39,253 nucleotides of DNA, from sequence record MN218775.2. The stretch is one strand, 5' to 3'. The notes beneath the pieces are model-generated. The model was not told the DNA's origin and made no database searches. It worked only from the letters and a program-made list of their open reading frames with translations. The stretch comes from Escherichia virus ECG4. Position numbers and translations under genes: made by a program. Below are positions 2,873 through 36,791 of the stretch, piece after piece. The stretch's first letter is position 1; every line of letters starts with the position of its first letter.

Positions 2873-5554
2873 ATGAGCGTCATCTCTATTGACAAACATG
2901 ACTTCTCTGATGTGTCGAACGCCATTGAGCCGTTTAACCTGCTGGCTGACCACTACGGACAAGACCTTGCAGTCAAACAGCTTCAGCTTGAGCATGAGGC
3001 ATATACAGAAGGCGAGCGACGTTTCATCAAGAACCTTGAGCGGCAGACTGAGCGCGGGGAACTGGCAGACAATCAGGTCGCCAAGCCTTTGATGCAGACT
3101 CTGGTCCCTAAGATTGCGCAAGCCGTCAGGGAGTGGCACGAAGGCCTAGACGGGAAGCTGTCAACCTCGCGTCCTAGCGTAGCGTTCACCATGTTGAGCA
3201 CTGAAGAGAAGGCCGTTAAGGACCGCTCTATGCGCATCTCCTGTGAGTCCGCTGCGGTTATCATACTGAAGGTCATACTCTCCAAGCTGGTCAAGCCTGA
3301 AGGGATACCGATTACACCGATGGCCTCCGCGATAGGTCGCACGCTTGAGGACGAAATCCGCTTCGGTCGCATCCGTGACAAAGAGAAGGAGCACTTCAAG
3401 AAGGCGATAGCTGATAACCTGAACAAGCGAGCTGGGGCATCCTACAAGAAAGCCTACATGCAAGCGGTCGAGGCGTCCATGCTGGAGCAAGGCCAACTGG
3501 AAGATGCATGGGGTACTTGGAGTCCTACAGAGGCTGTACACGTTGGCATCAAGATGCTCGAGATTGTCATCCAGTCAACACAACTGGTCGAGCTTAAGCG
3601 GTACGGTGCTGGTAATGCAGCGGCTGACGTAGAGATGGTCCACCTGTCAGACTTCTGGGTCAAGAAGATGGCACAACGAGGATTCAGCCTTGCGGGTATC
3701 GCTCCAGTCTACCAGCCTTGCGTCGTTCCACCTAAGCCGTGGACTGGTGTCGTAGGTGGTGGGTACTGGGCCAAAGGTCGCAGACCGTTACCATTGATTC
3801 GCTTAGGGTCTAAGTCTGCGGTAGCACGTTATGAAGACGTATACATGCCTGAAGTCTATGACGCTGTGAACATCATTCAGAATACACCTTGGAAAGTTAA
3901 CAAGAAGGTATTGGACGTGGTGAACATGGTCGAGAAGCTGAACAACACGCCTATTAATGACATCCCTCAGATGGAACCGCTGAAGCCTGAGGACTATGCT
4001 GGTGAAACCGAGGAGGAACTCAAGGCATGGAAGAAGGCTGCTGCTGGTATCTATCGCCGCGAGAAGGCCAGACAGTCACGCAGATTGTCCATGAGTTTCA
4101 TCGTTCACCAGGCCAACAAGTTCTCACAGTTTAAGGCCATCTGGTTCCCGTACAACATGGATTGGCGAGGTCGTGTCTACGCTGTCCCGATGTTCAACCC
4201 TCAGGGTAACGACATGCAGAAGGGGCTCCTGACTCTGGCAGTCGGCAAGCCTATCGGGGCGGATGGTTTCAAATGGCTTAAAGTCCACGGTGCAAACTGT
4301 GCGGGTGTCGATAAAGTCACCTTCGATGAGCGCATCAAGTGGGTGGAAGACAACCACGAAAACATCATGGCTGCTGCTAAGGCACCGATGGATAGTATTG
4401 AGTGGTGGGGCAAGTTAGACTCTCCGTTCTGTTTCCTCGCGTTCTGCTTCGAGTATGCTGGCGTAATGCACCACGGCCTGTCTTACTCCTGCTCGCTGCC
4501 GATAGCGTTCGATGGGTCCTGCTCTGGTATTCAGCACTTCAGTGCGATGCTTCGTGACCACATCGGTGGACATGCAGTAAACCTGACGCCATCCGGCATG
4601 GTACAAGACATCTACCGCATTGTGTCTGACCGCATTGAGGAGGAGCTTAAAGTCCTTCTGATTAACGGTACTGACAACGAGATGGTCACTCACGAGGATA
4701 AGAAAACTGGTGAGATTACCGAACGTATCAAGCTGGGGACACGAGAGCTGGCCCGTCGGTGGCTGACATACGGTATGTCACGCAAGGTCACTAAGCGTTC
4801 AGTCATGACTCTGGCATACGGGTCGAAAGAGTACGGATTCGCAGACCAAGTTTACGAGGACATCGTGATGCCAGCGATTGACTCAGGGTCTGGCGCTATG
4901 TTCACTGAACCAAGCCAAGCGTCTCGCTTCATGGCAAAGATGATTTGGGAAGCTGTGAGTGTGACAGTAGTTGCTGCGGTTGACGCGATGAAGTGGCTTC
5001 AAGGTGCTGCCAAGCTGCTGGCTGCTGAGGTGAAGGACAAGAAGACTGGGGAAATCCTGAAGCCTTGCCTTCCGGTACACTGGGTCACACCTGATGGGTT
5101 CCCGGTCTGGCAGGAATACCGCAAGAAGGATACCACTCGTCTGAACCTGATGTTCTTAGGGTCCTTCAACCTTCAACCTACGGTCAACAAAGGTACGAAG
5201 AAAGAGCTGGACAAGCACAAGCAGGAGTCAGGCATTAGCCTTAACTTCGTCCACTCACAAGATGGTAGCCACCTGCGGAAGACTGTAGTCCACACTCACA
5301 GCAAGTATGGCGTGATGTCATTCGCAGTGATTCACGATAGCTTCGGGACCATCCCTGCTGACGCTGAGTATCTGTTCCGTGGTGTCCGTGAGACGATGGT
5401 CGAGACATACCGCGATAACGATGTGCTGCTTGACTTCTACGAGCAGTTTGAATACCAGCTTCATGAAAGCCAGCGCGACAAGTTGCCTGAGCTTCCGAAG
5501 AAAGGTAAACTGAATATCGAAGACATCTTGTCTTCAGACTTTGCATTCGCTTAA
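2873..5554 (+). CDS. Single-subunit DNA-directed RNA polymerase (T7 gene 1 homologue), 893 aa
   Basis: Length and colinear similarity to T7 RNAP, including the C-terminal HSQDGSHLRKTVV ... DSFGTIPADA ... SDFAFA. Confidence 0.97.
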   Translation: MSVISIDKHDFSDVSNAIEPFNLLADHYGQDLAVKQLQLEHEAYTEGERRFIKNLERQTERGELADNQVAKPLMQTLVPKIAQAVREWHEGLDGKLSTSRPSVAFTMLSTEEKAVKDRSMRISCESAAVIILKVILSKLVKPEGIPITPMASAIGRTLEDEIRFGRIRDKEKEHFKKAIADNLNKRAGASYKKAYMQAVEASMLEQGQLEDAWGTWSPTEAVHVGIKMLEIVIQSTQLVELKRYGAGNAAADVEMVHLSDFWVKKMAQRGFSLAGIAPVYQPCVVPPKPWTGVVGGGYWAKGRRPLPLIRLGSKSAVARYEDVYMPEVYDAVNIIQNTPWKVNKKVLDVVNMVEKLNNTPINDIPQMEPLKPEDYAGETEEELKAWKKAAAGIYRREKARQSRRLSMSFIVHQANKFSQFKAIWFPYNMDWRGRVYAVPMFNPQGNDMQKGLLTLAVGKPIGADGFKWLKVHGANCAGVDKVTFDERIKWVEDNHENIMAAAKAPMDSIEWWGKLDSPFCFLAFCFEYAGVMHHGLSYSCSLPIAFDGSCSGIQHFSAMLRDHIGGHAVNLTPSGMVQDIYRIVSDRIEEELKVLLINGTDNEMVTHEDKKTGEITERIKLGTRELARRWLTYGMSRKVTKRSVMTLAYGSKEYGFADQVYEDIVMPAIDSGSGAMFTEPSQASRFMAKMIWEAVSVTVVAAVDAMKWLQGAAKLLAAEVKDKKTGEILKPCLPVHWVTPDGFPVWQEYRKKDTTRLNLMFLGSFNLQPTVNKGTKKELDKHKQESGISLNFVHSQDGSHLRKTVVHTHSKYGVMSFAVIHDSFGTIPADAEYLFRGVRETMVETYRDNDVLLDFYEQFEYQLHESQRDKLPELPKKGKLNIEDILSSDFAFA

Positions 5555-6023: not shown

Positions 6024-6416
6024 ATGGTCGGCCTGAAGTTCAAGGCTCTGTTCAATAGCCTCTACCAGCCGACTGAGTTCAAGACCGGGCCTGGAGCATG
6101 CGGTAAGATTGTGACGCACTTCACCACGAGTCGAGACGAGCGGACCCTGACCATCCACCAGCACCACACGGATGGCTCTCAGAAGGACTACATGCTGAGA
6201 CTGAGCGACATCGACGGTCGCATCCAGTATGACTACGAGCAAGTTAAAGTCTATGGACAGGAGGCCGAACGTGAGCGAGCGATTCAGGCATTCACGCAGG
6301 TAAGACCGCGCATCATCTTACCCCTTTGCCTCCCATTGCCGTTAACCGTTAAAATTCCGTGTCGACGTACGTACGTACGTACGTACGTACGTACGTTGCA
6401 TGCATGCATGCACTAA
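6024..6416 (+). CDS. Hypothetical 130-aa ORF that runs into the tetranucleotide repeat tract
   Basis: ATG with GAGG 8 nt upstream. The last about 15 codons are translated from the (ACGT)n/(TGCA)n tract and the stop is the TAA of the downstream promoter, so the 3' end is not credible as native coding. Confidence 0.25.
   Translation: MVGLKFKALFNSLYQPTEFKTGPGACGKIVTHFTTSRDERTLTIHQHHTDGSQKDYMLRLSDIDGRIQYDYEQVKVYGQEAERERAIQAFTQVRPRIILPLCLPLPLTVKIPCRRTYVRTYVRTLHACMH
6357..6412. repeat. Perfect tetranucleotide tandem tract: SalI-like GTCGAC, then (ACGT)x8 (6365-6396), then (TGCA)x4 (6397-6412)
   Basis: Read directly from the sequence. Contains ATG in all three frames (6400, 6404, 6408) and three GCATGC sites; abuts the phi1.1-like promoter. 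Confidence 0.95.
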
Positions 6417-6434
6417 ACTATCACTATAGGATTA
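6412..6434 (+). promoter_or_regulatory. Phage RNAP promoter (phi1.1-like)
   Basis: TAAACTATCACTATAGGA at 6414-6431, +1 G at 6429. Confidence 0.75.
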
Positions 6435-6476
6435 GACTCAAGGTCATGACTCAAAGTCGTGGCCTTCATGATTAAC
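6433..6476 (+). promoter_or_regulatory. Conserved hairpin element TAGACTCAAGGTCAT ... GTGGCCTTCATGATTAAC (candidate RNase III site, R1.1-like)
   Basis: One of three near-identical elements (also 13237-13278 and 36245-36287); AAGGTC can pair with GGCCTT. Confidence 0.45.
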
Positions 6477-13105: not shown

Positions 13106-13234
13106 ATGTACAAATGGTGGAGTGATGAAGCAACCTGCCTGTCCAACATTCTGGGAGACCAAAGGTTCGACTCTAAGGCATGGAAGAGAGCTAACCGGAA
13201 GTTTATGTATCACTTCTTGCGTACAGACTTCTAG
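13106..13234 (+). CDS. Possible small protein, 42 aa
   Basis: ATG immediately after the gene 4 stop (TAAATG); no clear RBS. Confidence 0.3.
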   Translation: MYKWWSDEATCLSNILGDQRFDSKAWKRANRKFMYHFLRTDF

Positions 13235-13236
13235 GT

Positions 13237-13278
13237 CTAGACTCAAGGTCATTCACATCGAGTGGCCTTTATGATTAG
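13237..13278 (+). promoter_or_regulatory. Conserved hairpin element (candidate RNase III site, R4.7-like) upstream of the DNA polymerase gene
   Basis: TAGACTCAAGGTCATTCACATCGAGTGGCCTTTATGATTAGAC; second copy of the element. Confidence 0.45.
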
Positions 13279-21006: not shown

Positions 21007-21029
21007 ACTAAACTATCACTATAGGGAGA
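21007..21029 (+). promoter_or_regulatory. Phage RNAP promoter (phi10-like), full consensus including GGGAGA
   Basis: TAAACTATCACTATAGGGAGA at 21009-21029, +1 G at 21024. Confidence 0.8.
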
Positions 21030-21132
21030 CCAAGAGACAGACTCAAGGTTTCCCCTATTACTTCAGTCCATACGGATTGGGCATACAGTAAGTAATAAAC
21101 TTTATCTTTCAATTGAATAGGAGAATTATCAT

Positions 21133-22182
21133 ATGGCAAACGTTCCGGGTCAGAAAATTGGTACAGACCAAGGTAAAGGCAAATCCAGTTCCGACGCTCT
21201 GGCGTTGTTCCTGAAGGTATTTGCTGGTGAAGTCCTGACCGCATTCACTCGCCGCTCTGTAACTGCTGACAAGCATATTGTCCGTACCATTCAGAACGGT
21301 AAGTCTGCTCAGTTCCCGGTCATGGGTCGCACCTCTGGTGTGTATCTGGCTCCGGGTGAGCGACTGTCCGATAAGCGTAAAGGTATCAAACATACCGAGA
21401 AAGTGATTACCATTGATGGTCTGCTGACTGCCGATGTGATGATTTTCGACATTGAAGACGCGATGAACCACTATGACGTGGCTGGCGAATATTCCAATCA
21501 GTTAGGTGAAGCTCTGGCTATCGCTGCTGATGGTGCTGTTCTGGCTGAAATGGCTATCCTGTGTAACCTACCGGCTGCATCCAACGAGAATATTGCTGGT
21601 CTTGGCACTGCGTCCGTACTTGAAGTAGGCAAGAAAGCTGACCTCAACACCCCGGCTAAACTGGGTGAAGCAATCATTGGGCAACTTACCATTGCTCGTG
21701 CGAAGCTGACCTCCAACTACGTTCCTGCTGGCGACCGTTACTTCTACACCACGCCTGACAACTACTCTGCAATCCTCGCTGCTCTGATGCCGAATGCTGC
21801 TAACTATGCTGCGCTGATTGACCCGGAGACTGGTAACATCCGTAACGTAATGGGCTTTGTTGTTGTTGAAGTTCCACACCTGACTCAGGGCGGTGCTGGT
21901 GAAACTCGTGGTGCTGATGGCATCACTATTGCGACTGGTCAGAAGCACGCATTCCCAGCTACCGCTACTGGTGATGTTAAAGTTGCTCTGGACAACGTTG
22001 TGGGCCTGTTCTCTCACCGTTCTGCTGTGGGTACTGTTAAGCTGCGTGACTTGGCGCTGGAACGTGACCGTGACGTCGATGCTCAGGGCGACCTGATTGT
22101 TGGTAAATACGCTATGGGTCACGGTGGTCTGCGTCCTGAAGCGGCTGGCGCACTGGTTTTCACAGCAGCTTCAGCGGGTTAA
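21133..22182 (+). CDS. Major capsid protein (T7 gene 10A homologue), 349 aa
   Basis: Position, length and strong leader after the phi10-like promoter. Confidence 0.95.
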   Translation: MANVPGQKIGTDQGKGKSSSDALALFLKVFAGEVLTAFTRRSVTADKHIVRTIQNGKSAQFPVMGRTSGVYLAPGERLSDKRKGIKHTEKVITIDGLLTADVMIFDIEDAMNHYDVAGEYSNQLGEALAIAADGAVLAEMAILCNLPAASNENIAGLGTASVLEVGKKADLNTPAKLGEAIIGQLTIARAKLTSNYVPAGDRYFYTTPDNYSAILAALMPNAANYAALIDPETGNIRNVMGFVVVEVPHLTQGGAGETRGADGITIATGQKHAFPATATGDVKVALDNVVGLFSHRSAVGTVKLRDLALERDRDVDAQGDLIVGKYAMGHGGLRPEAAGALVFTAASAG

Positions 22183-22445
22183 TGACCTTCAGGGCTCTCT
22201 CTACTGAGGGTCCTACCTTGGAAACCTGGAGTCCTTCAGTGGGTGTCAGTATTAAGGTTGACTTCCCTGAGCTGGCAGATGTGACCGACTGGTCTCTGCT
22301 GGATGTAACCATGCCGGATGGTGTGAGCTACTCTCGTAGAACCAATAGTCTCTACTTCAAGGCCACCGATGCTGTGACAGGTCTTGTAACTGTTGGATAT
22401 GACGGGTCTACCGTTAGGTCATTCAACGTTTCGTTCACAAACTAA
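22155..22445 (+). CDS. Minor capsid form (10B-like) C-terminal extension, reached by a -1 ribosomal frameshift
   Basis: Heptamer G GTT TTC at 22155-22161, nine codons before the 10A stop; the -1 frame is open to 22445 and would add about 95 aa. Same arrangement as T7 10A/10B. Confidence 0.6.
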   Translation, partial: GFHSSFSGLMTFRALSTEGPTLETWSPSVGVSIKVDFPELADVTDWSLLDVTMPDGVSYSRRTNSLYFKATDAVTGLVTVGYDGSTVRSFNVSFTN

Positions 22446-22451
22446 TTGAAA

Positions 22452-22488
22452 CCCCTTGGGTGCCTTCGGGTGCTTGAGGGTTTTTTTT
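22452..22488 (+). terminator. Tphi-like intrinsic terminator after the capsid gene
   Basis: 12-bp stem CCCTTGGGTGCC / GGTGCTTGAGGG with G-U pairs, TTCG loop, T8 run; resembles T7 Tphi. Confidence 0.8.
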
Positions 22489-22503
22489 GCTTAAGGAGGG
22501 CCT

Positions 22504-23070
22504 ATGGCTCAATACATTCCACTGAACGCTAACGATGACTTAGATGCCATCAACGATATGTTAGCTGCTATAGGTGAACCAGCAGTCCTACAGCTTGACG
22601 AGGGTAACGCTGACGTCTCTAACGCACAACGTATCCTGCATCGTGTCAATCGTCAGGTCCAAGCTAAAGGCTGGAACTTTAACATCAACGAAGCTGCTGT
22701 CCTGACACCTGATGTCCAAGACAATAGGATTCGATTCCTTCCGTCTTACCTTCGTGTAATGACCGCTGGGGCCACCAGCTACTACAGCAACATGGGTGGA
22801 TACCTGTACGACCTGTCCACTCAGTCAACCACTTTCACCGACCCTATAACGGTAGAGCTTGTTGAGATGAAACCGTTCTCTGAGATGCCTGTGGTATTCA
22901 GGGACTACATCGTTACCAAGGCCAGCCGTGAGTTCAACGCTAAGTTCTTCGGTAGCCCAGAGTCTGAACTGTACCTTCGTGAGCAGGAAGCAGAGCTCTA
23001 TCAGCAGGTCATGGAATACGAGATGGACACTGGTCGATACAACATGATGTCCGACATCGGGAGGGACTAA
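22504..23070 (+). CDS. Tail tubular protein A (T7 gene 11 homologue), 188 aa
   Basis: Position and length. Confidence 0.88.
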   Translation: MAQYIPLNANDDLDAINDMLAAIGEPAVLQLDEGNADVSNAQRILHRVNRQVQAKGWNFNINEAAVLTPDVQDNRIRFLPSYLRVMTAGATSYYSNMGGYLYDLSTQSTTFTDPITVELVEMKPFSEMPVVFRDYIVTKASREFNAKFFGSPESELYLREQEAELYQQVMEYEMDTGRYNMMSDIGRD

Positions 23071-23297
23071 TGGCTAGTCACAACCTGAAGATTCACCGCC
23101 AGCACTTTGGTCCGGTACAACTAGGTTTAAAGACAGCAGAGCTGAGACTTAACGACAGGGACTTTAAGGTTGGCGATTGGCTTATCCTGAATGAGTGGGA
23201 CAACGGGTATACTGGGCAACAGGTAGCACGTAAGGTTGTCCATGTGGCTGACGTTGGTGACATCGCTGAAGGATACGTCCTAATCAGTATGATTTAA
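23070..23297 (+). CDS. Accessory protein, 75 aa, possibly ASCH/DUF3850-like, inserted between the tail genes
   Basis: ATG overlaps the gene 11 stop. KIHRQHFGPVQLGLKTAELRLNDRDFKVGDWLILNEWD resembles the DUF3850 pattern as I recall it (unverified). Confidence 0.55.
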   Translation: MASHNLKIHRQHFGPVQLGLKTAELRLNDRDFKVGDWLILNEWDNGYTGQQVARKVVHVADVGDIAEGYVLISMI

Positions 23298-23306
23298 GGA
23301 GGGCCT

Positions 23307-25664
23307 ATGCCACTTATCACACAAAGCATCAAAAATCTTAAAGGTGGAATTAGCCAGCAGCCTGACATACTGAGGTTCTCAGACCAAGGCGAGGCGCAGG
23401 TTAACTGCTGGTCATCAGAGAGTGATGGCCTCCAGAAGCGTCCACCTACAGTCTTCAAGCGACGTCTTAACATCGACGTTGGGAGCAACCCTAAGTTCCA
23501 CCTGATTAATCGTGACGAGCAGGAGCAGTACTATATAGTGTTCAATGGGTCCAACATTCAGGTAGTTGACTTGAGCGGTAATCAATACTCAGTGTCCGGT
23601 GCGGTAGACTACGTTAAGTCCTCCAACCCACGAGATGACATCCGTGTCGTTACCGTGGCAGACTATACGTTCGTCGTTAACCGTAAGGTTGTCGTCAAAG
23701 GTGGAAGCGAGAAGTCACACTCTGGTTATAACCGTAAAGCACGAGCTTTAATTAACCTGCGTGGTGGGCAGTATGGTCGAACCCTTAAAGTGGGAATCAA
23801 CGGTGGCGTTAAGGTCTCGCATAAGCTACCAGCAGGTAATGATGCCGAGAATGACCCACCTAAGGTGGACGCTCAAGCCATTGGGGCAGCTCTGAGAGAC
23901 CTTCTTGTTGCTGCTTACCCTACCTTCACGTTCGACCTTGGGTCTGGCTTCCTGTTAATCACTGCCCCTTCAGGGACTGACATTAACTCAGTGGAGACGG
24001 AGGATGGTTACGCTAACCAGCTAATCAGCCCAGTACTCGACACAGTGCAGACAATCTCTAAGTTACCTCTTGCAGCTCCAAATGGGTACATCATTAAGAT
24101 TCAAGGTGAGACCAACAGTAGCGCCGATGAATACTACGTGATGTATGACTCCAATACTAAGACGTGGAAGGAGACAGTTGAGCCGGGAGTTGTCACTGGG
24201 TTCGACAACACCACAATGCCACATGCTCTGGTAAGACAGTCTGACGGCTCCTTTGAGTTCAAGACTCTGGATTGGTCCAAGCGTGGTGCTGGTAACGATG
24301 ACACAAACCCTATGCCTAGCTTCGTGGATGCTGCGATTAATGATGTGTTCTTCTACAGGAACAGGCTAGGGTTCTTGTCTGGTGAGAACGTAATCATGAG
24401 CCGTTCAGCCAGCTACTTTGCGTTCTTCCCTAAGAGTGTGGCGACACTGAGTGATGCTGATCCTATTGATGTAGCTGTAAGTCACCCTCGAATCTCAATC
24501 CTTAAGTATGCCGTTCCGTTTAGCGAGCAGCTACTACTTTGGTCGGATGAGGTTCAGTTCGTGATGACAAGCTCTGGGGTCCTTACCTCGAAGTCTATCC
24601 AGCTTGATGTAGGCTCAGAGTTTGCCCTAGGTGACAATGCCAGACCGTTCACTGTAGGACGCTCAGTCTTCTTCTCAGCTCCTCGTGGGTCATTCACCAG
24701 TATTAAGCGATACTTCGCTGTAGCTGATGTATCTGATGTGAAGGATGCAGATGATACAACTGGTCACGTACTGTCCTACATCCCTAACGGGGTGTTTGAT
24801 ATTCAAGGTACAGGTACTGAGAACTACATCTGCGTCAACTCTACAGGTGCATACAACCGAATCTACATCTACAAGTTCTTGTTTAAGGACGGAGTACAGC
24901 TTCAAGCCTCTTGGTCACACTGGGAGTTCCCTAAAGATGATAAGATTCTGGCGTCTGCTTCTATTGGCTCTACCATGTTCATCGTTCGTCAGCACCAAGG
25001 AGGGGTAGACATTGAGCACCTTAAGTTCATCAAGGAGGCAACTGACTTTCCCTCAGAGCCATATAGACTACACATTGACTCCAAGGTGTCTATGGTAATT
25101 CCAATTGGCTCATATAATGCTGACACCTATAAGACTACGGTTGACATTGGTGCTTCTTATGGTGGCAACGCTCCGTCTCCCGGTCGGTACTATCTGATTG
25201 ACAGTCAGGGTGCTTATGTGGACCTTGGGGACTTGTCCAGTATCTCTACTGTGATTACCCTCAACGGCGATTGGTCAGGACGTACAGTGTTCATCGGACG
25301 GCCCTATCTGATGTCCTACAAGTTCTCACGGTTCCTGATTAAGATTGAAGATGATAGTGGCACTCAGTCTGAAGACACTGGTCGTCTACAGCTTCGTCGG
25401 GCTTGGGTCAACTACAAGGACACTGGCGCTCTGAGACTAATTGTCAGAAACGGTGAGCGGGAGTTCGTGAATACCTTCAACGGGTACACACTTGGTCAGC
25501 AAACCATAGGGACTACAAACATTGGTGACGGGCAGTATCGCTTCGCTATGAATGGTAACGCATTGACCACGAGTCTAACCTTAGAGTCCGACTATCCTAC
25601 CCCAGTGTCAATCGTTGGTTGTGGCTGGGAGGCGTCATACGCTAAGAAAGCTCGTTCCGTTTAA
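23307..25664 (+). CDS. Tail tubular protein B (T7 gene 12 homologue), 785 aa
   Basis: Position and length. Confidence 0.9.
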   Translation: MPLITQSIKNLKGGISQQPDILRFSDQGEAQVNCWSSESDGLQKRPPTVFKRRLNIDVGSNPKFHLINRDEQEQYYIVFNGSNIQVVDLSGNQYSVSGAVDYVKSSNPRDDIRVVTVADYTFVVNRKVVVKGGSEKSHSGYNRKARALINLRGGQYGRTLKVGINGGVKVSHKLPAGNDAENDPPKVDAQAIGAALRDLLVAAYPTFTFDLGSGFLLITAPSGTDINSVETEDGYANQLISPVLDTVQTISKLPLAAPNGYIIKIQGETNSSADEYYVMYDSNTKTWKETVEPGVVTGFDNTTMPHALVRQSDGSFEFKTLDWSKRGAGNDDTNPMPSFVDAAINDVFFYRNRLGFLSGENVIMSRSASYFAFFPKSVATLSDADPIDVAVSHPRISILKYAVPFSEQLLLWSDEVQFVMTSSGVLTSKSIQLDVGSEFALGDNARPFTVGRSVFFSAPRGSFTSIKRYFAVADVSDVKDADDTTGHVLSYIPNGVFDIQGTGTENYICVNSTGAYNRIYIYKFLFKDGVQLQASWSHWEFPKDDKILASASIGSTMFIVRQHQGGVDIEHLKFIKEATDFPSEPYRLHIDSKVSMVIPIGSYNADTYKTTVDIGASYGGNAPSPGRYYLIDSQGAYVDLGDLSSISTVITLNGDWSGRTVFIGRPYLMSYKFSRFLIKIEDDSGTQSEDTGRLQLRRAWVNYKDTGALRLIVRNGEREFVNTFNGYTLGQQTIGTTNIGDGQYRFAMNGNALTTSLTLESDYPTPVSIVGCGWEASYAKKARSV

Positions 25665-25688: not shown

Positions 25689-25711
25689 CCTTAACTATCA
25701 CTATAGGGACT
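25689..25711 (+). promoter_or_regulatory. Phage RNAP promoter (phi13-like)
   Basis: TTAACTATCACTATAGGGA at 25691-25709, +1 G at 25706. Confidence 0.75.
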
Positions 25712-33033: not shown

Positions 33034-35667
33034 ATGTCCACGATTACACAATTCCCTTCAGGAAACACTCGTTACAGGATTGAGTTCGACTACCTAGCCA
33101 GAACGTTTGTTGTTGTTACGCTGGTGAATAGCTCTAACCCTGCCCTGAACCGTGTACTGGAAGTTGGTCGAGATTACCGATTCCTTAATCCAACGATGAT
33201 TGAGATGTTGGTTGACCAATCAGGTTTCGACATCGTTCGTATTCACCGTCAGACTGGAACTGACTTAGTGGTAGACTTCAGGAATGGCTCAGTGTTGACA
33301 GCTAGTGACCTGACCAATGCAGAGCTTCAGGCTATCCATATTGCAGAAGAAGGTCGAGACCAAACTGTTGACTTAGCGAAGGAATATGCCGATGCTGCTG
33401 GTAACTCTGCTGGCAACGCTAAGGATAGCGAGGACGAAGCACGACGAATCGCTGAGAGTATCAAGGCATCTGGTCTTCTTGGCTATATTACCCGTCGCTC
33501 CTTCGAGAAAGGCTTCAACGTTACAATATGGAACGAGGTACTGCTATGGGAAGAGGATGGTGATTATTACCGATGGGATGGTGGACTGCCAAAAAACGTA
33601 CCTGTTGGTTCAACTCCTGAAACGTCTGGCGGCGTTGGTTTGGGTGCGTGGGTTAGTGTTGGTGATGCGTCATTGCGCGCCGATATTGCAAACCTTTACC
33701 AACCGGAACAAATTTATTCGGCACAAAAACGGGAAACACTGTCTACAGTCCTGAGCAGCCGTTGGGCTAATTCGGGAGCAGATAAAAAGAAATTCGTTTT
33801 GACCTGCCATTACTATTCCCAGATTACGATGCTATTCTGGCGGCACACCCTGACTGGACGTTTATTTATCCGGGGTCATTCTGTATCGGGGATGATGGCA
33901 AAATCTATATTACATATGGCCCAAGTAACAACGCAGCTACGGAACGTTTCGTTGTACTTTACTCAGGTGAAGGTGAATACTTACGTATCTCCAGACTATT
34001 ATTGGAGGCACCGGGGTAAATGGTTCTGCGGTATCCGAGGGATTATCGTAACCAATTACTATGGTTCACTTAAGTTATTCCTTGATCCTACGATGGTAAC
34101 TTACCTGAGTTTGATATCTCAGCAGTGCCCTACGGCACCACGATTAGCTATACAGCGTTACACCAAGTGGGTCTGGGCATTAACCGTCAACGTAATGTTA
34201 TTGCGTACTTCAACCCGCATTTGCATTAACTGGTTTCACGGAATTTTCTCCGTATCATGCTGGATACATCACGTCAACTACTACTCATTACGGGTCACTT
34301 CAAACTATGCGACAAGCAATCTGTTTAGCTCCCGGTGTTTTGATCATGGCATTTGGTGGTGTTTACATTACAGGAACAACTGTACAAGCGCCTACTATTT
34401 ATCAGGGTACAAGCATTTAGCACTGATGGGCACAAAATGGTACAGGCAGTACTACCCCTACTCATTTTATTACTGTTTTGATGCTACAGGGTTAATGACC
34501 TCTCGTATAGAGAATCAGGGTGTCTGCTATTCAAATGGTCAAGTATTTACTTTCTGGATTTATATCAATACAACTGCCTCAAATGCGTATACTATCGGTA
34601 TCCTGATTACTCAAGAATATTCGAACTCCCCGGATTTGATTTTTCTGGGGCGGTTACGGTATCCCCGGTTACGATACTGTTCGAATGGCTTCTGGGTTTA
34701 CCCTCGTATTCTCTTACAGATCTGGATGGAGTTGCCTACCCAATTGGGATACAGCTTCATATCAGCAACCTCAATAACCTCAGCTTCTATAGATCAGACT
34801 GGGCCACTACCCGTAAGACTCTGCGCGTTACTTATCACACTTCCGGTTATACCGTATTTACTGGGGCTATCGGTTTACAGACTTATCGCTTATCCCTCAA
34901 TAATACTGACTCTGGTGCATTATCCCAAGGTCGAATTGCAGCTAGGGCTTTCGGTAATAAAACTTTATCCGAATCAGAACAGATTCTTGTCCTCGATCAA
35001 CAAAGTTCCGCATCTGCACATTCTCTTATCTTACGTGGTGGATCGTCGGTATTTAAGAGTGCTACGTCTATTATATCTATACGCCATCGAATACTGCCAC
35101 CTACGGTTTCGGGCGACGGATTACTACCAAAACATACATCTCTACGTCCATACACAGATAACGCTTACAATTTACGCGGCCCAGCATTACGTGTGGCTCA
35201 AGTCTTCGCAGCGATTGGTACTATTAATACGTCCGACTCCCGTGAAAAACTTACCCGTTTCAAATCTCGGATCATATCCTTCATGCCTGGGCGACGTGCA
35301 GATAATCACGTACAAGTGGTTATCTTCTATTGCGGGTACAGGTGCAGATTCTGCTCGTTGGCATTTCGGGTATTTGCCCAGCAAGTTCGTGATGCCTTCG
35401 TATAGCATGGTTTCATGGTACTACCTTCGGTCTGCTTTGCTATGTCGAGTGGGAAGATCAGTATCAACCTCAGTTCGTTCATCAGGTTATCACTGTTATT
35501 ATTCATGGTGTAGATACCGAAGTTACCCGTCAAGTGGAAACCGGTATTACCATACTTACTACAGCTGCCGGTCATCGCTGGGGCATTCGTCCAGATCAGT
35601 GTTTCTGGTTGAGGCCGCTTATCAGCGACGTCGCTGCGACAGGATTGAAACACGACTGACTGACTGA
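33034..35667 (+). CDS. Tail fiber/tailspike ORF, 877 aa: T7 gp17-like N-terminal adaptor domain, then an anomalous central region
   Basis: N-terminal about 230 aa matches T7 gp17 ([36 protein letters not shown]). From about 33750 to 35600 the open frame encodes a Tyr/Cys/Trp/His-rich, Asp/Glu/Lys-poor sequence. The ORF ends in the three-frame stop TGACTGACTGA. Confidence 0.5.
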
Positions 35668-35690
35668 CGTACGTACGTACGTACGTACGT
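35654..35690. repeat. Perfect tetranucleotide tandem tract: (GACT)x3 then (ACGT)x6, with TGA in all three frames
   Basis: Read directly: GACTGACTGACTGACGTACGTACGTACGTACGTACGT; TGA at 35657, 35661, 35665. Confidence 0.95.
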
Positions 35691-35785
35691 GCTTGAAGGT
35701 TGTGGAGGTAGAGGCTAACTACACGCTGACCAACGTATGGTAACAGCTTTGGGTCACGGACGACCCGCTTTAAACTGGAGGTTTT

Positions 35786-35980
35786 ATGATTGAGTTAGAC
35801 TTCAAGAATGAGGTCCTTAAAGCCTCTCCTATAGTCGGGACCGCTGCGGCTGATGGTGCCAGTCGGTTCTTCTTTGGACTTACACTGAACGAATGGTTCT
35901 ACGTTGCAGCTATCGCGTACACCGTTGTCCAGATTGGTGTGCTAGTCTACAAAACGATTAAAGGAGGTGGTAAAACATGA
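35786..35980 (+). CDS. Holin (T7 gene 17.5 homologue), 64 aa
   Basis: FFFGLTLNEWFYVAAIAYTVVQIG near-identical to T7 gp17.5 (LFFGLSLNEWFYVAAIAYTVVQIG). Confidence 0.85.
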   Translation: MIELDFKNEVLKASPIVGTAAADGASRFFFGLTLNEWFYVAAIAYTVVQIGVLVYKTIKGGGKT

Positions 35981-36240
35981 CGCAGATGGACTTAGAGAAG
36001 TTCCTCTTGATGCTTGATACTGAGCGTGCTCGACTTATGCTGCAAGACTTGCGGGATGACACTAAGCGTTCACCTCAGCTCTACAACGCCATTGAGAAGC
36101 TGCTTGCTCGTCACAACTTTGTGTTAAGCAAGGTGTCTGTTGACGAGAAGACGCTCGCTGATATGGAGGCCCTGAACGCAGAGTACGATAAGGTGCTCTC
36201 CGCTACGGAAGATAATGACACCGGGTATGGTGTTCAATAA
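35977..36240 (+). CDS. Terminase small subunit (T7 gene 18 homologue), 87 aa
   Basis: Position and length (T7 gp18 is 89 aa); ATG overlaps the holin stop. Confidence 0.8.
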   Translation: MTQMDLEKFLLMLDTERARLMLQDLRDDTKRSPQLYNAIEKLLARHNFVLSKVSVDEKTLADMEALNAEYDKVLSATEDNDTGYGVQ

Positions 36241-36244
36241 GCGT

Positions 36245-36287
36245 TAGACTCAAGGTCATTACTGTATGTAGTGGCCTTTATGGTTAA
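36245..36287 (+). promoter_or_regulatory. Conserved hairpin element (candidate RNase III site, R18.5-like)
   Basis: TTAGACTCAAGGTCATTACTGTATGTAGTGGCCTTTATGGTTAAC; third copy of the element. Confidence 0.45.
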
Positions 36288-36341
36288 CACTAACTAGTGG
36301 AGGAGACTCTACGTGCAATCTGATAAACCGGGAGGGCAACT

Positions 36342-36791
36342 ATGCTCGAATTTTTAAAGAGAGCTGCTCCGTGGTTACTTGCAGCAGTGATGTTTGCTGG
36401 TGGCTACCACACCGCTAACAATAAGTGGGAGGCTAAGGTCAATGAAGAATACACCTCGAATCTTAAGGCATCGGAAGATACAAGGCTTGCTGTCCAAGCT
36501 GAAGTCAACAAAGTGTCCAAACGGTTTCAGGACGAAATGTCCTCGCTGGAAGGCAGCACTGATAGGATTATTGCTGATCTTCAGTCTGACAATAAGCGGT
36601 TGCGCATCCGAGTCAAGCCAACGAGTGGAACCACGCAAAGTGACGGTCGATGCGTCATTGATGGTTACGCCGAGCTTGACGAAAGAGATGCTAAACGTCT
36701 TATCACCATCGGAGTGAAAGGAGACAAGTGGATTAAGGCCCTTCAGGACACTGTGAGAGCCTTGCAGCAAGATAAGGAGGTGACGCATTGA
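36342..36791 (+). CDS. i-spanin, Rz-like (T7 gene 18.5 homologue), 149 aa
   Basis: [22 protein letters not shown]-terminal TM and [22 protein letters not shown] matching T7 gp18.5. Confidence 0.85.
36394..36717 (+). CDS. o-spanin, Rz1-like lipoprotein (T7 gene 18.7 homologue) embedded in the +1 frame of the i-spanin gene; start uncertain
   Basis: [24 protein letters not shown] (lipobox ISGC) ... [20 protein letters not shown] matches T7 gp18.7. Confidence 0.7.
   Translation: MLVATTPLTISGRLRSMKNTPRILRHRKIQGLLSKLKSTKCPNGFRTKCPRWKAALIGLLLIFSLTISGCASESSQRVEPRKVTVDASLMVTPSLTKEMLNVLSPSE

Follow-up and report, generated by a model that had tools for sequence, protein, structure and literature searches.

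The complete 39,253-nucleotide genome of Escherichia virus ECG4 (MN218775.2, hereafter the window) belongs to a T7-like phage in Kayfunavirus, the genus of the K1F-like coliphages, and between its tail tubular genes 11 and 12 it carries a small gene of 75 codons plus stop (23070-23297, + strand) encoding an 8.5-kDa protein with an isoelectric point (pI) of 6.4. Profile searches and structure prediction place this protein in the DUF3850 branch of the ASCH/PUA-like superfamily, as what appears to be a minimal single-domain barrel. With somewhat more confidence than doubt, we read it as a non-structural, cytoplasmic DUF3850 protein that would bind or hydrolyse a modified base and whose accessory gene would be ancestral to Kayfunavirus.

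Family membership was supported by several collections. Residues 4-73 aligned with positions 2-76 of the 77 in the Pfam DUF3850 profile (PF12961) at E = 3e-19, scoring 69.4 bits against a cut-off of 22.9, and the Pfam ASCH profile (PF04266, PUA-like clan) was matched at 26.2 bits against a cut-off of 21.2 (E = 1.4e-5). PHROGs returned phrog_986, 'RNA-binding protein' (E = 8.7e-35, aligned at profile positions 95-171 of 253), and an NCBIfam scan of the protein gave no family. In profile searches against PDB sequences 3IUW was the sole significant match (E = 1.7e-10 by sequence, 2.7e-19 with a profile), other ASCH structures being reachable by fold comparison only. The AlphaFold2 model, with a predicted local distance difference test score (pLDDT) of 96.4, is a five-strand, one-helix beta-barrel with no helix beyond residue 17 and a C-terminal beta-strand running up to residue 75; Foldseek aligned it to 3IUW with a template modelling (TM) score of 0.89-0.92, YqfB coming next. 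The 3IUW entry (E. faecalis V583 NP_814290.1, 'activating signal cointegrator') is a structural-genomics DUF3850 protein, bacterial and probably from a prophage; as the sole solved member of the family it gives the identity of the fold but no mechanism.

The family is very widely spread. A profile search recovered 16,095 cluster representatives (50% identity) at E ≤ 1e-3 and 5,307 at E ≤ 1e-10, from Enterobacterales, Clostridia, Bacteroidota, Caulobacter, Actinomycetota, Saccharibacteria and one archaeal metagenome-assembled genome, and tblastn located homologues in 558 phage records. The initial annotation of this DNA had likened the protein to the ASCH/DUF3850 fold, proposing a Pfam search and a look for homologues in other phages, and on both counts the likeness held.

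Residue conservation, scored over 150 diverse family representatives, identified K21, E24, R26, D29 and R30 as invariant, with H4, L6, K7, V16, G19, N28, G35, D36, E42, T48, G49, G68, Y69 and S73 conserved in at least 90%. Codons G19-R30 (23124-23159, + strand) encode the octapeptide G-x-K-x-x-E-x-R, here G19-L-K21-T-A-E24-L-R26 and thus of the GKER subgroup of ASCH, followed by an N-D-R that is specific to DUF3850; on the strength of its conservation this segment is predicted to form the ligand pocket. So many conserved polar residues in a barrel of 75 residues argue for a specific pocket, and the near-neutral pI (family median 6.5 for stand-alone members; YqfB 4.7) is more in keeping with a pocket enzyme or reader than with a general binder of nucleic acid as a polyanion. 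The protein also contains the peptide VGDWLILNEWDNGYTGQQVAR. Domain fusions among the 150 representatives comprised DUF551 in 11, a dATP/dGTP pyrophosphohydrolase in 1 and helix-turn-helix domains in single cases.

The open reading frame (ORF) is a real gene under purifying selection. Across 15 related loci the pairwise ratio of nonsynonymous to synonymous substitution (dN/dS) against the window was 0.06-0.22, even where dS exceeded 1, and in three lineages with saturated synonymous sites (dS 1.1-1.4) it stood at 0.10-0.18, close to the 0.12-0.15 of gene 12. The ORF, its overlap with gene 11 and both of the ribosome-binding sites described below were kept in all 15. Two antisense ORFs (23093-23263 and 23127-23243, - strand) were dismissed because the substitution pattern fits the + frame, and an Rfam scan of the whole window returned no match, hence no known RNA element in or near the gene. 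Its GC content (0.478, flanks 0.49) gave no sign of recent foreign origin. Escherichia virus LS3 (MN518893.2) shares 99.2% identity with the window across 36.8 kb, and 99.8% over a 1.3-kb query around the ORF; it labels the counterpart, LS3_39, "RNA-binding protein", while other records use 'activating signal cointegrator', 'DUF3850' or 'hypothetical protein'.

The gene is fitted tightly between its neighbours. Gene 11 (tail tubular protein A, 188 aa, 22504-23070, + strand), recognized from its ORF, the LS3 annotation and the Pfam Tube domain in homologous loci, ends in a TAA (23068-23070) that shares one base with the ASCH ATG (23070-23072), giving TAATG. A Shine-Dalgarno sequence read directly from the DNA, GGGAGGG (23059-23065, + strand), lies within the final gene 11 codons 4 nt 5' of this ATG; it is kept as GGGAG[G/A]G in 15 of 15 ASCH-carrying loci, and reads GGTCGAG in Dev2, which is without the gene. 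This anatomy suggests that ASCH translation is coupled to that of gene 11, and the initial annotation, which had described a 75-aa ORF coupled to the gene 11 stop, was accurate to the base. A second Shine-Dalgarno sequence, AAGGAGGG (23296-23303, + strand), similarly read from the sequence, overlaps the ASCH stop and serves gene 12, which begins 9 nt past that stop and encodes tail tubular protein B, or nozzle (785 aa, 23307-25664, + strand; from its ORF and Pfam Phage_nozzle in homologous loci). The two sites share GGAGGG, a 6-nt direct repeat that brackets exactly the 237 nt missing from K1F and YZ1.

Comparison of this junction across relatives bears on the age of the gene. Genes 11 and 12 are separated by a 23-nt gap in T7, and they overlap in K1F. 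In K1F, the type phage, and in YZ1 the ASCH gene is absent and the gene 12 ATG replaces the ASCH ATG behind the same embedded GGGAGGG (junction GGGAGGGACTAATGCC), so that the site serving the ASCH ORF in the window serves gene 12 in K1F. Dev2 and the Citrobacter phages SH3/4/5, also without the gene, have instead an 11-nt spacer, TAATAGGAGGTGATATG. A 631-nt junction query was at least 80% covered in 164 records, the ASCH carriers, and about 209 records matched its flanks at ≥80% identity, so by this rough count roughly one fifth are without the gene. The gene occurs in four lineages of gp12 with mutual identities of only 70-74%, and its own divergence (68-85% identity) follows that of gp12, not that of the much more conserved gp11. 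Relative to the window, K1F has 100% identical gp11 and 98% identical gp12, which nests it among ASCH-carrying phages; the nearest sampled relative of Dev2 is GA2A (gp12 89%), an ASCH carrier.

The most economical reading of these comparisons is that the gene was probably ancestral to, or early in, Kayfunavirus and has been lost at least twice, as the K1F/YZ1 and Dev2/SH groups differ in their deletion scars. In K1F and YZ1 the loss would have taken out the stretch from one ATG to the next, with the two GGAGGG repeats as its borders; for Dev2 and the SH phages it would have reached from one TAA stop to the other, and GA2A retains a Dev2-like CTGGAGGTGATATG past its ASCH stop. The initial annotation had spoken of a gene inserted into an otherwise invariant 11-12 junction, and neither half of that description was supported. 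With the gene in four diverged gp12 lineages and its divergence tracking gp12, a recent insertion does not fit as well as ancestry followed by later losses, and the junction itself holds other ORFs in yong1, Ca, B1 and kpssk3. An additional endonuclease VII ORF, of 146 aa, follows ASCH and precedes gene 12 in the Hafnia phages yong1 and Ca (in yong1, L030 1040-1480, Pfam PF02945, E = 2.6e-20; in Ca, annotated 'Endonuclease' in that phage's paper); phage B1 has a 158-aa ORF at the junction, probably an endonuclease VII; and in the Przondovirus (Klebsiella phage) kpssk3 a 168-aa ORF rich in Cys and His separates genes 11 and 12 (L031 767-1273). Homing-endonuclease-like genes have landed repeatedly at the 11/12 junction.

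The ASCH gene is missing from phages whose gp11 and gp12 are almost the same, which argues that its product is not a tail component and is dispensable for virion assembly and growth. In the other phage contexts examined, we found no placement of the family in a structural module. In Yersinia phage L-413C orf91 lies directly 3' of a P2-type replication gene A; in a lambdoid Erwinia phage DUF3850 sits between the replicative helicase and NinX; in a T1-like phage it is in the early region, and in a Listeria phage near the SSB gene. The P2-like Orf91 and the stand-alone lambdoid, T1-like, Webervirus, Listeria and Gordonia proteins share the same domain at 36-66% identity and are likewise products of small accessory genes; Orf91, however, has a C-terminal extension (150 aa), and placement in a tail operon is confined to Kayfunavirus. 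The closest relatives outside the genus are from enterobacterial siphoviruses (58-66% identity), a kinship that suggests a horizontal origin.

What the protein does must be approached through its relatives. Whatever activity has been assigned to an ASCH-fold protein, it involves a base that sits in the pocket of the barrel, and within the reading we favour, the cytoplasmic location, the ligand, any catalysis and the benefit to the phage are what we infer. The predicted pocket of K21, E24, R26, D29 and R30 would take a nucleobase, flipped out or free, whose exocyclic amine is modified, and the Lys/Glu pair may hydrolyse that modification. In its most concrete version the protein would be a binder or deacetylase of N4-acyl-cytidine (ac4C), with host tRNA or nucleosides freed from RNA as its target. 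We favour this version as removal of ac4C is the only activity so far generalized to GKER ASCH proteins, and it is also the form most easily checked; by analogy with those proteins we hold it with moderate-to-low confidence. Each of the 19 ASCH proteins assayed in vitro stripped tRNA of ac4C, the GKER Lys/Glu dyad was essential in the three proteins mutated (TthASCH, EOLA1 and TRIP4), and in E. coli ac4C occurs at position 34 of elongator tRNA-Met (bioRxiv 10.64898/2026.02.27.708502). That dyad is present here as the invariant K21 and E24, and F13 and the near-invariant Y69 are candidate counterparts of Tyr14 and Tyr81, which position the nucleoside in TthASCH.

The resemblance to each characterized system is nevertheless partial. 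GKER proteins such as TthASCH (2DP9), EOLA1 and TRIP4 have the same PUA-like barrel, octapeptide and Lys/Glu/Arg positions, but they are 120-160 aa long with helical elements that contribute aromatic pocket residues, whereas DUF3850 proteins, at about 75 aa, are without these, carry the extra invariant N-D-R and show sequence similarity within the first ~60 residues only. E. coli YqfB (1TE7 / 9KYF), an N4-acetylcytidine amidohydrolase, acts through K21, T24, R26 and E74 (PMC9599836), and its catalytic K21 and R26 occupy the same motif positions as in our protein. The YqfB motif, however, is GKTR with Thr24 as the nucleophile, where the phage protein has a family-invariant Glu24, and its Glu74 lies on a C-terminal helix for which a protein ending at residue 75 has no equivalent; identity as a YqfB-type enzyme was rejected on these two grounds. 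ZmASCH (5GUQ) cleaves single-stranded RNA in a Mg-dependent manner (PMC5615036), but it is a protein of 145 aa with a basic cleft and a Tyr47/Lys53/Ser128 set, and the near-neutral phage protein is without those elements.

Several points weigh against a modified-base enzyme or binder acting on RNA. The 19 proteins assayed for ac4C removal included no phage protein and no DUF3850 member, and free ac4C was left unhydrolysed by the GKER proteins ZmASCH and TRIP4 (bioRxiv 10.64898/2026.02.27.708502). DUF3850 has no counterpart of the helical C-terminus from which Glu74 of YqfB and Tyr81 of TthASCH come, and the hhalign alignment to YqfB was weak, covering residues 10-47 only at 23% probability. 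In bacterial genomes the genes that recur most often next to the family encode DNA methyltransferases, which points to DNA rather than RNA. We also know of no gain that a lytic phage would draw from removing ac4C from tRNA.

The association with methyltransferases underlies the alternative that survives best, to which we grant a real though clearly minor likelihood: that the pocket reads N6-methyladenine (m6A) or N4-methylcytosine (m4C) in DNA, for example in Dam-methylated host GATC, discriminating or masking methylated DNA during infection. We surveyed 80 bacterial loci carrying the family, calling ORFs, clustering the neighbours and confirming methyltransferases with Pfam. Methyltransferases were present in 19 of the 80 (D12/Dam in 14, N6_N4 in 7), always co-directional, and in at least nine loci, from Gammaproteobacteria and Clostridia, they abutted or overlapped the DUF3850 gene; these counts come without a background rate for random prophage genes. 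ASCH domains fused to or in operons with N6A methyltransferases have been described, and discrimination of m6A predicted for them (Iyer et al., PMC4738411), and ParB-CTPase-DUF3850 fusions are phage-enriched and occur alongside ParB-methyltransferase fusions (PMC12704722). ASCH is also found among the sensor domains of modification-dependent nucleases, and the ASCH-like BapA is a DNA glycosylase for 5-hydroxymethylcytosine. The ParB fusions of phages and prophages (PNAS 2025) are, however, two-domain proteins co-encoded with ParA, while the phage protein is a bare domain and is not basic. Moreover, the phage encodes no methyltransferase, and its genome holds 24 GATC sites against 153 expected, a six-fold depletion, so any target would have to be host DNA.

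Some further observations stand on their own. In the prophage-like loci L043, L046, L047, L055, L059, L060, L105 and L108 of Gammaproteobacteria and Clostridia (~3190-4300 in each) a D12-class (Dam) gene ends on or overlaps the DUF3850 start, and in L051 a D12-class methyltransferase lies directly downstream instead; D12 methyltransferase and DUF3850 form a tight gene pair across phyla. In Caulobacter (L069, L074, L079, L098, L106 and others) the homologue sits in a conserved chromosomal neighbourhood, not a prophage, next to genes that, to judge from the cluster sequences and not from Pfam, seem to encode a YidC-like insertase, an RnpA-like protein and cytochrome bd subunits, which suggests a host-domesticated copy. 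Site depletion in the window extends beyond GATC, 10 of whose 24 sites lie in 34084-36576, to CCWGG (8 against 76 expected), and CTAG (31), AATT (42) and CGCG (47) are also low.

A role in counter-defence, also raised in the initial annotation, with the protein serving as a small sponge or inhibitor of a nucleotide-derived immune signal or blocking host machinery that detects base modification or attacks tRNA, seems to us improbable, though some features speak for it. The gene is small, dispensable and patchy within one genus, it is shared horizontally with the unrelated enterobacterial siphoviruses mentioned above (58-66% identity), its fold binds nucleobases, and the authors of PMC12704722 speculate on anti-defence for the phage-enriched ParB fusions, those with DUF3850 included. 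Yet expression with the late tail operon is unusual for such a function, for which early expression is typical, and a protein that conserves a Lys/Glu/Arg triad is more likely to catalyse a reaction or read a base than to sequester a signal. Our literature search found no paper tying ASCH to anti-defence, and the best PADLOC match, PDC-M07B, was sub-significant (14.7 bits, E = 0.006, 34 residues).

Two further explanations fare poorly. One would have the gene as a selfish or hitch-hiking cassette without phage function, tolerated at a place where mobile elements insert frequently; the endonuclease VII-type homing endonuclease genes at the same place in relatives, and a 237-nt unit that is bracketed by the GGAGGG repeat and supplies its own ribosome-binding site for gene 12, lend this some appeal, but we regard it as very improbable given a dN/dS maintained at 0.06-0.22 over lineages with saturated dS, an invariant motif, retention in about four fifths of related records and a Pfam content of DUF3850 and ASCH only, with no nuclease or recombinase domain. 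The other, which had been raised in the initial annotation as a virion-associated protein and which we now find scarcely credible, is a tail accessory that would be built into the virion together with gp11 and gp12. Its location between two tail genes and its translational coupling to gp11 might suggest this, but K1F, YZ1, Dev2 and SH3/4/5 build the same tail, with near-identical gp11/gp12, without it, and its homologues in the other phages examined lie in early or replication regions and never in structural modules. Published proteomics adds little here. Gel-band mass spectrometry of phage B1, whose ASCH protein is ORF40, listed six structural proteins with ORF40 not among them, a weak negative for a protein of 8.5 kDa; the SH3/SH4 virion proteomics is uninformative, these phages being without the gene; the paper on Hafnia phage Ca contains no mass spectrometry; and a literature search for 'gp11.5 / gene 11.5' gave nothing relevant, the sole gp11.5 match belonging to SP6/K1E numbering.

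The transcriptional setting is that of a late gene. The phage RNA polymerase promoter repeat CTAAACTATCACTATAGG has at least 11 copies in the window; the last before the 10-11-ASCH-12 unit is a phi10-like copy at 21008-21036 (+ strand), and none follows until about 25690, leaving the ASCH gene without a promoter of its own. At that point, 3' of gene 12, lies a phi13-like promoter (25690-25707, + strand; CTTAACTATCACTATAGG, in repeat family D4), with T7 phi13 at the equivalent place. Between the capsid region and gene 11 is a Tphi-like terminator (22453-22490, + strand) with a 12-bp stem followed by T8, in a position matching that of T7 Tphi. By analogy, genes 11, ASCH and 12 would be transcribed late by read-through past this terminator, and because the ASCH start is coupled to the gene 11 stop by TAATG and the embedded GGGAGGG, the protein is expected late and roughly in step with gp11. 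Just before the terminator ends an 87-aa ORF (22182-22445) that has an ATGA overlap with the major capsid stop and no Pfam match; it is placed where T7 makes its 10B frameshift extension and where Dev2 has a 64-aa gp10.1.

Elsewhere in the window, two tetranucleotide tracts were seen, (ACGT)n then (GCAT)n at 6364-6412, closing a small early ORF immediately 5' of a phage promoter, and (GACT)n then (ACGT)n at 35654-35690, in the 3'-terminal part of the tail-fibre gene. The LS3 record carries both unchanged; the region of the first is covered only by LS3 and LS2 among 218 related records, the others being ~90-100 nt shorter, and it could be an artefact of assembly or gap filling, or an insertion peculiar to the lineage. 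A conserved element of about 45 nt, TAGACTCAAGGTCAT...GTGGCCTT[C/T]ATG[A/G]TTA, occurs in three copies (6427-6476, 13232-13277 and 36239-36288), each of which folds into a hairpin interrupted by an internal loop (-18 to -20 kcal/mol, z -2.6 to -3.2) and has no Rfam match; in position the copies resemble the T7 RNase III sites R1.1, R4.7 and R18.5. Towards the left end a 23-nt element, GGCCCTGACTGATAGTCACTAAC, is present three times (737-759, 1054-1076 and 1416-1438) at a spacing of ~320-360 nt, and short tandem TTACCTACAGTCA repeats occupy 245-304; these may be early-region regulatory or concatemer-junction repeats.

As a discovery this ordinary accessory gene matters little, for it was already annotated in many Kayfunavirus records and its family already has a Pfam entry and a crystal structure. 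Its value is as a test system, belonging as it does to a very large, phage-enriched family that retains the Lys/Glu/Arg triad tied to removal of ac4C, and occurring in natural near-isogenic pairs, LS3-type phages against K1F and YZ1, that make a clean genetic test of DUF3850 function easy. A broader idea, which we offer tentatively and think doubtful, is that DUF3850 proteins are minimal, phage-spread enzymes or readers of bases modified on the exocyclic amine, whether ac4C in tRNA or m6A/m4C in DNA, and that Kayfunavirus would make its version late to reprogramme host tRNA decoding, to salvage modified cytidine, or to evade the sensing of modification or tRNA damage. If that were true, no nucleic-acid 'eraser' smaller than the 75-aa ASCH protein would be known, and it would represent a new type of phage-host interface.

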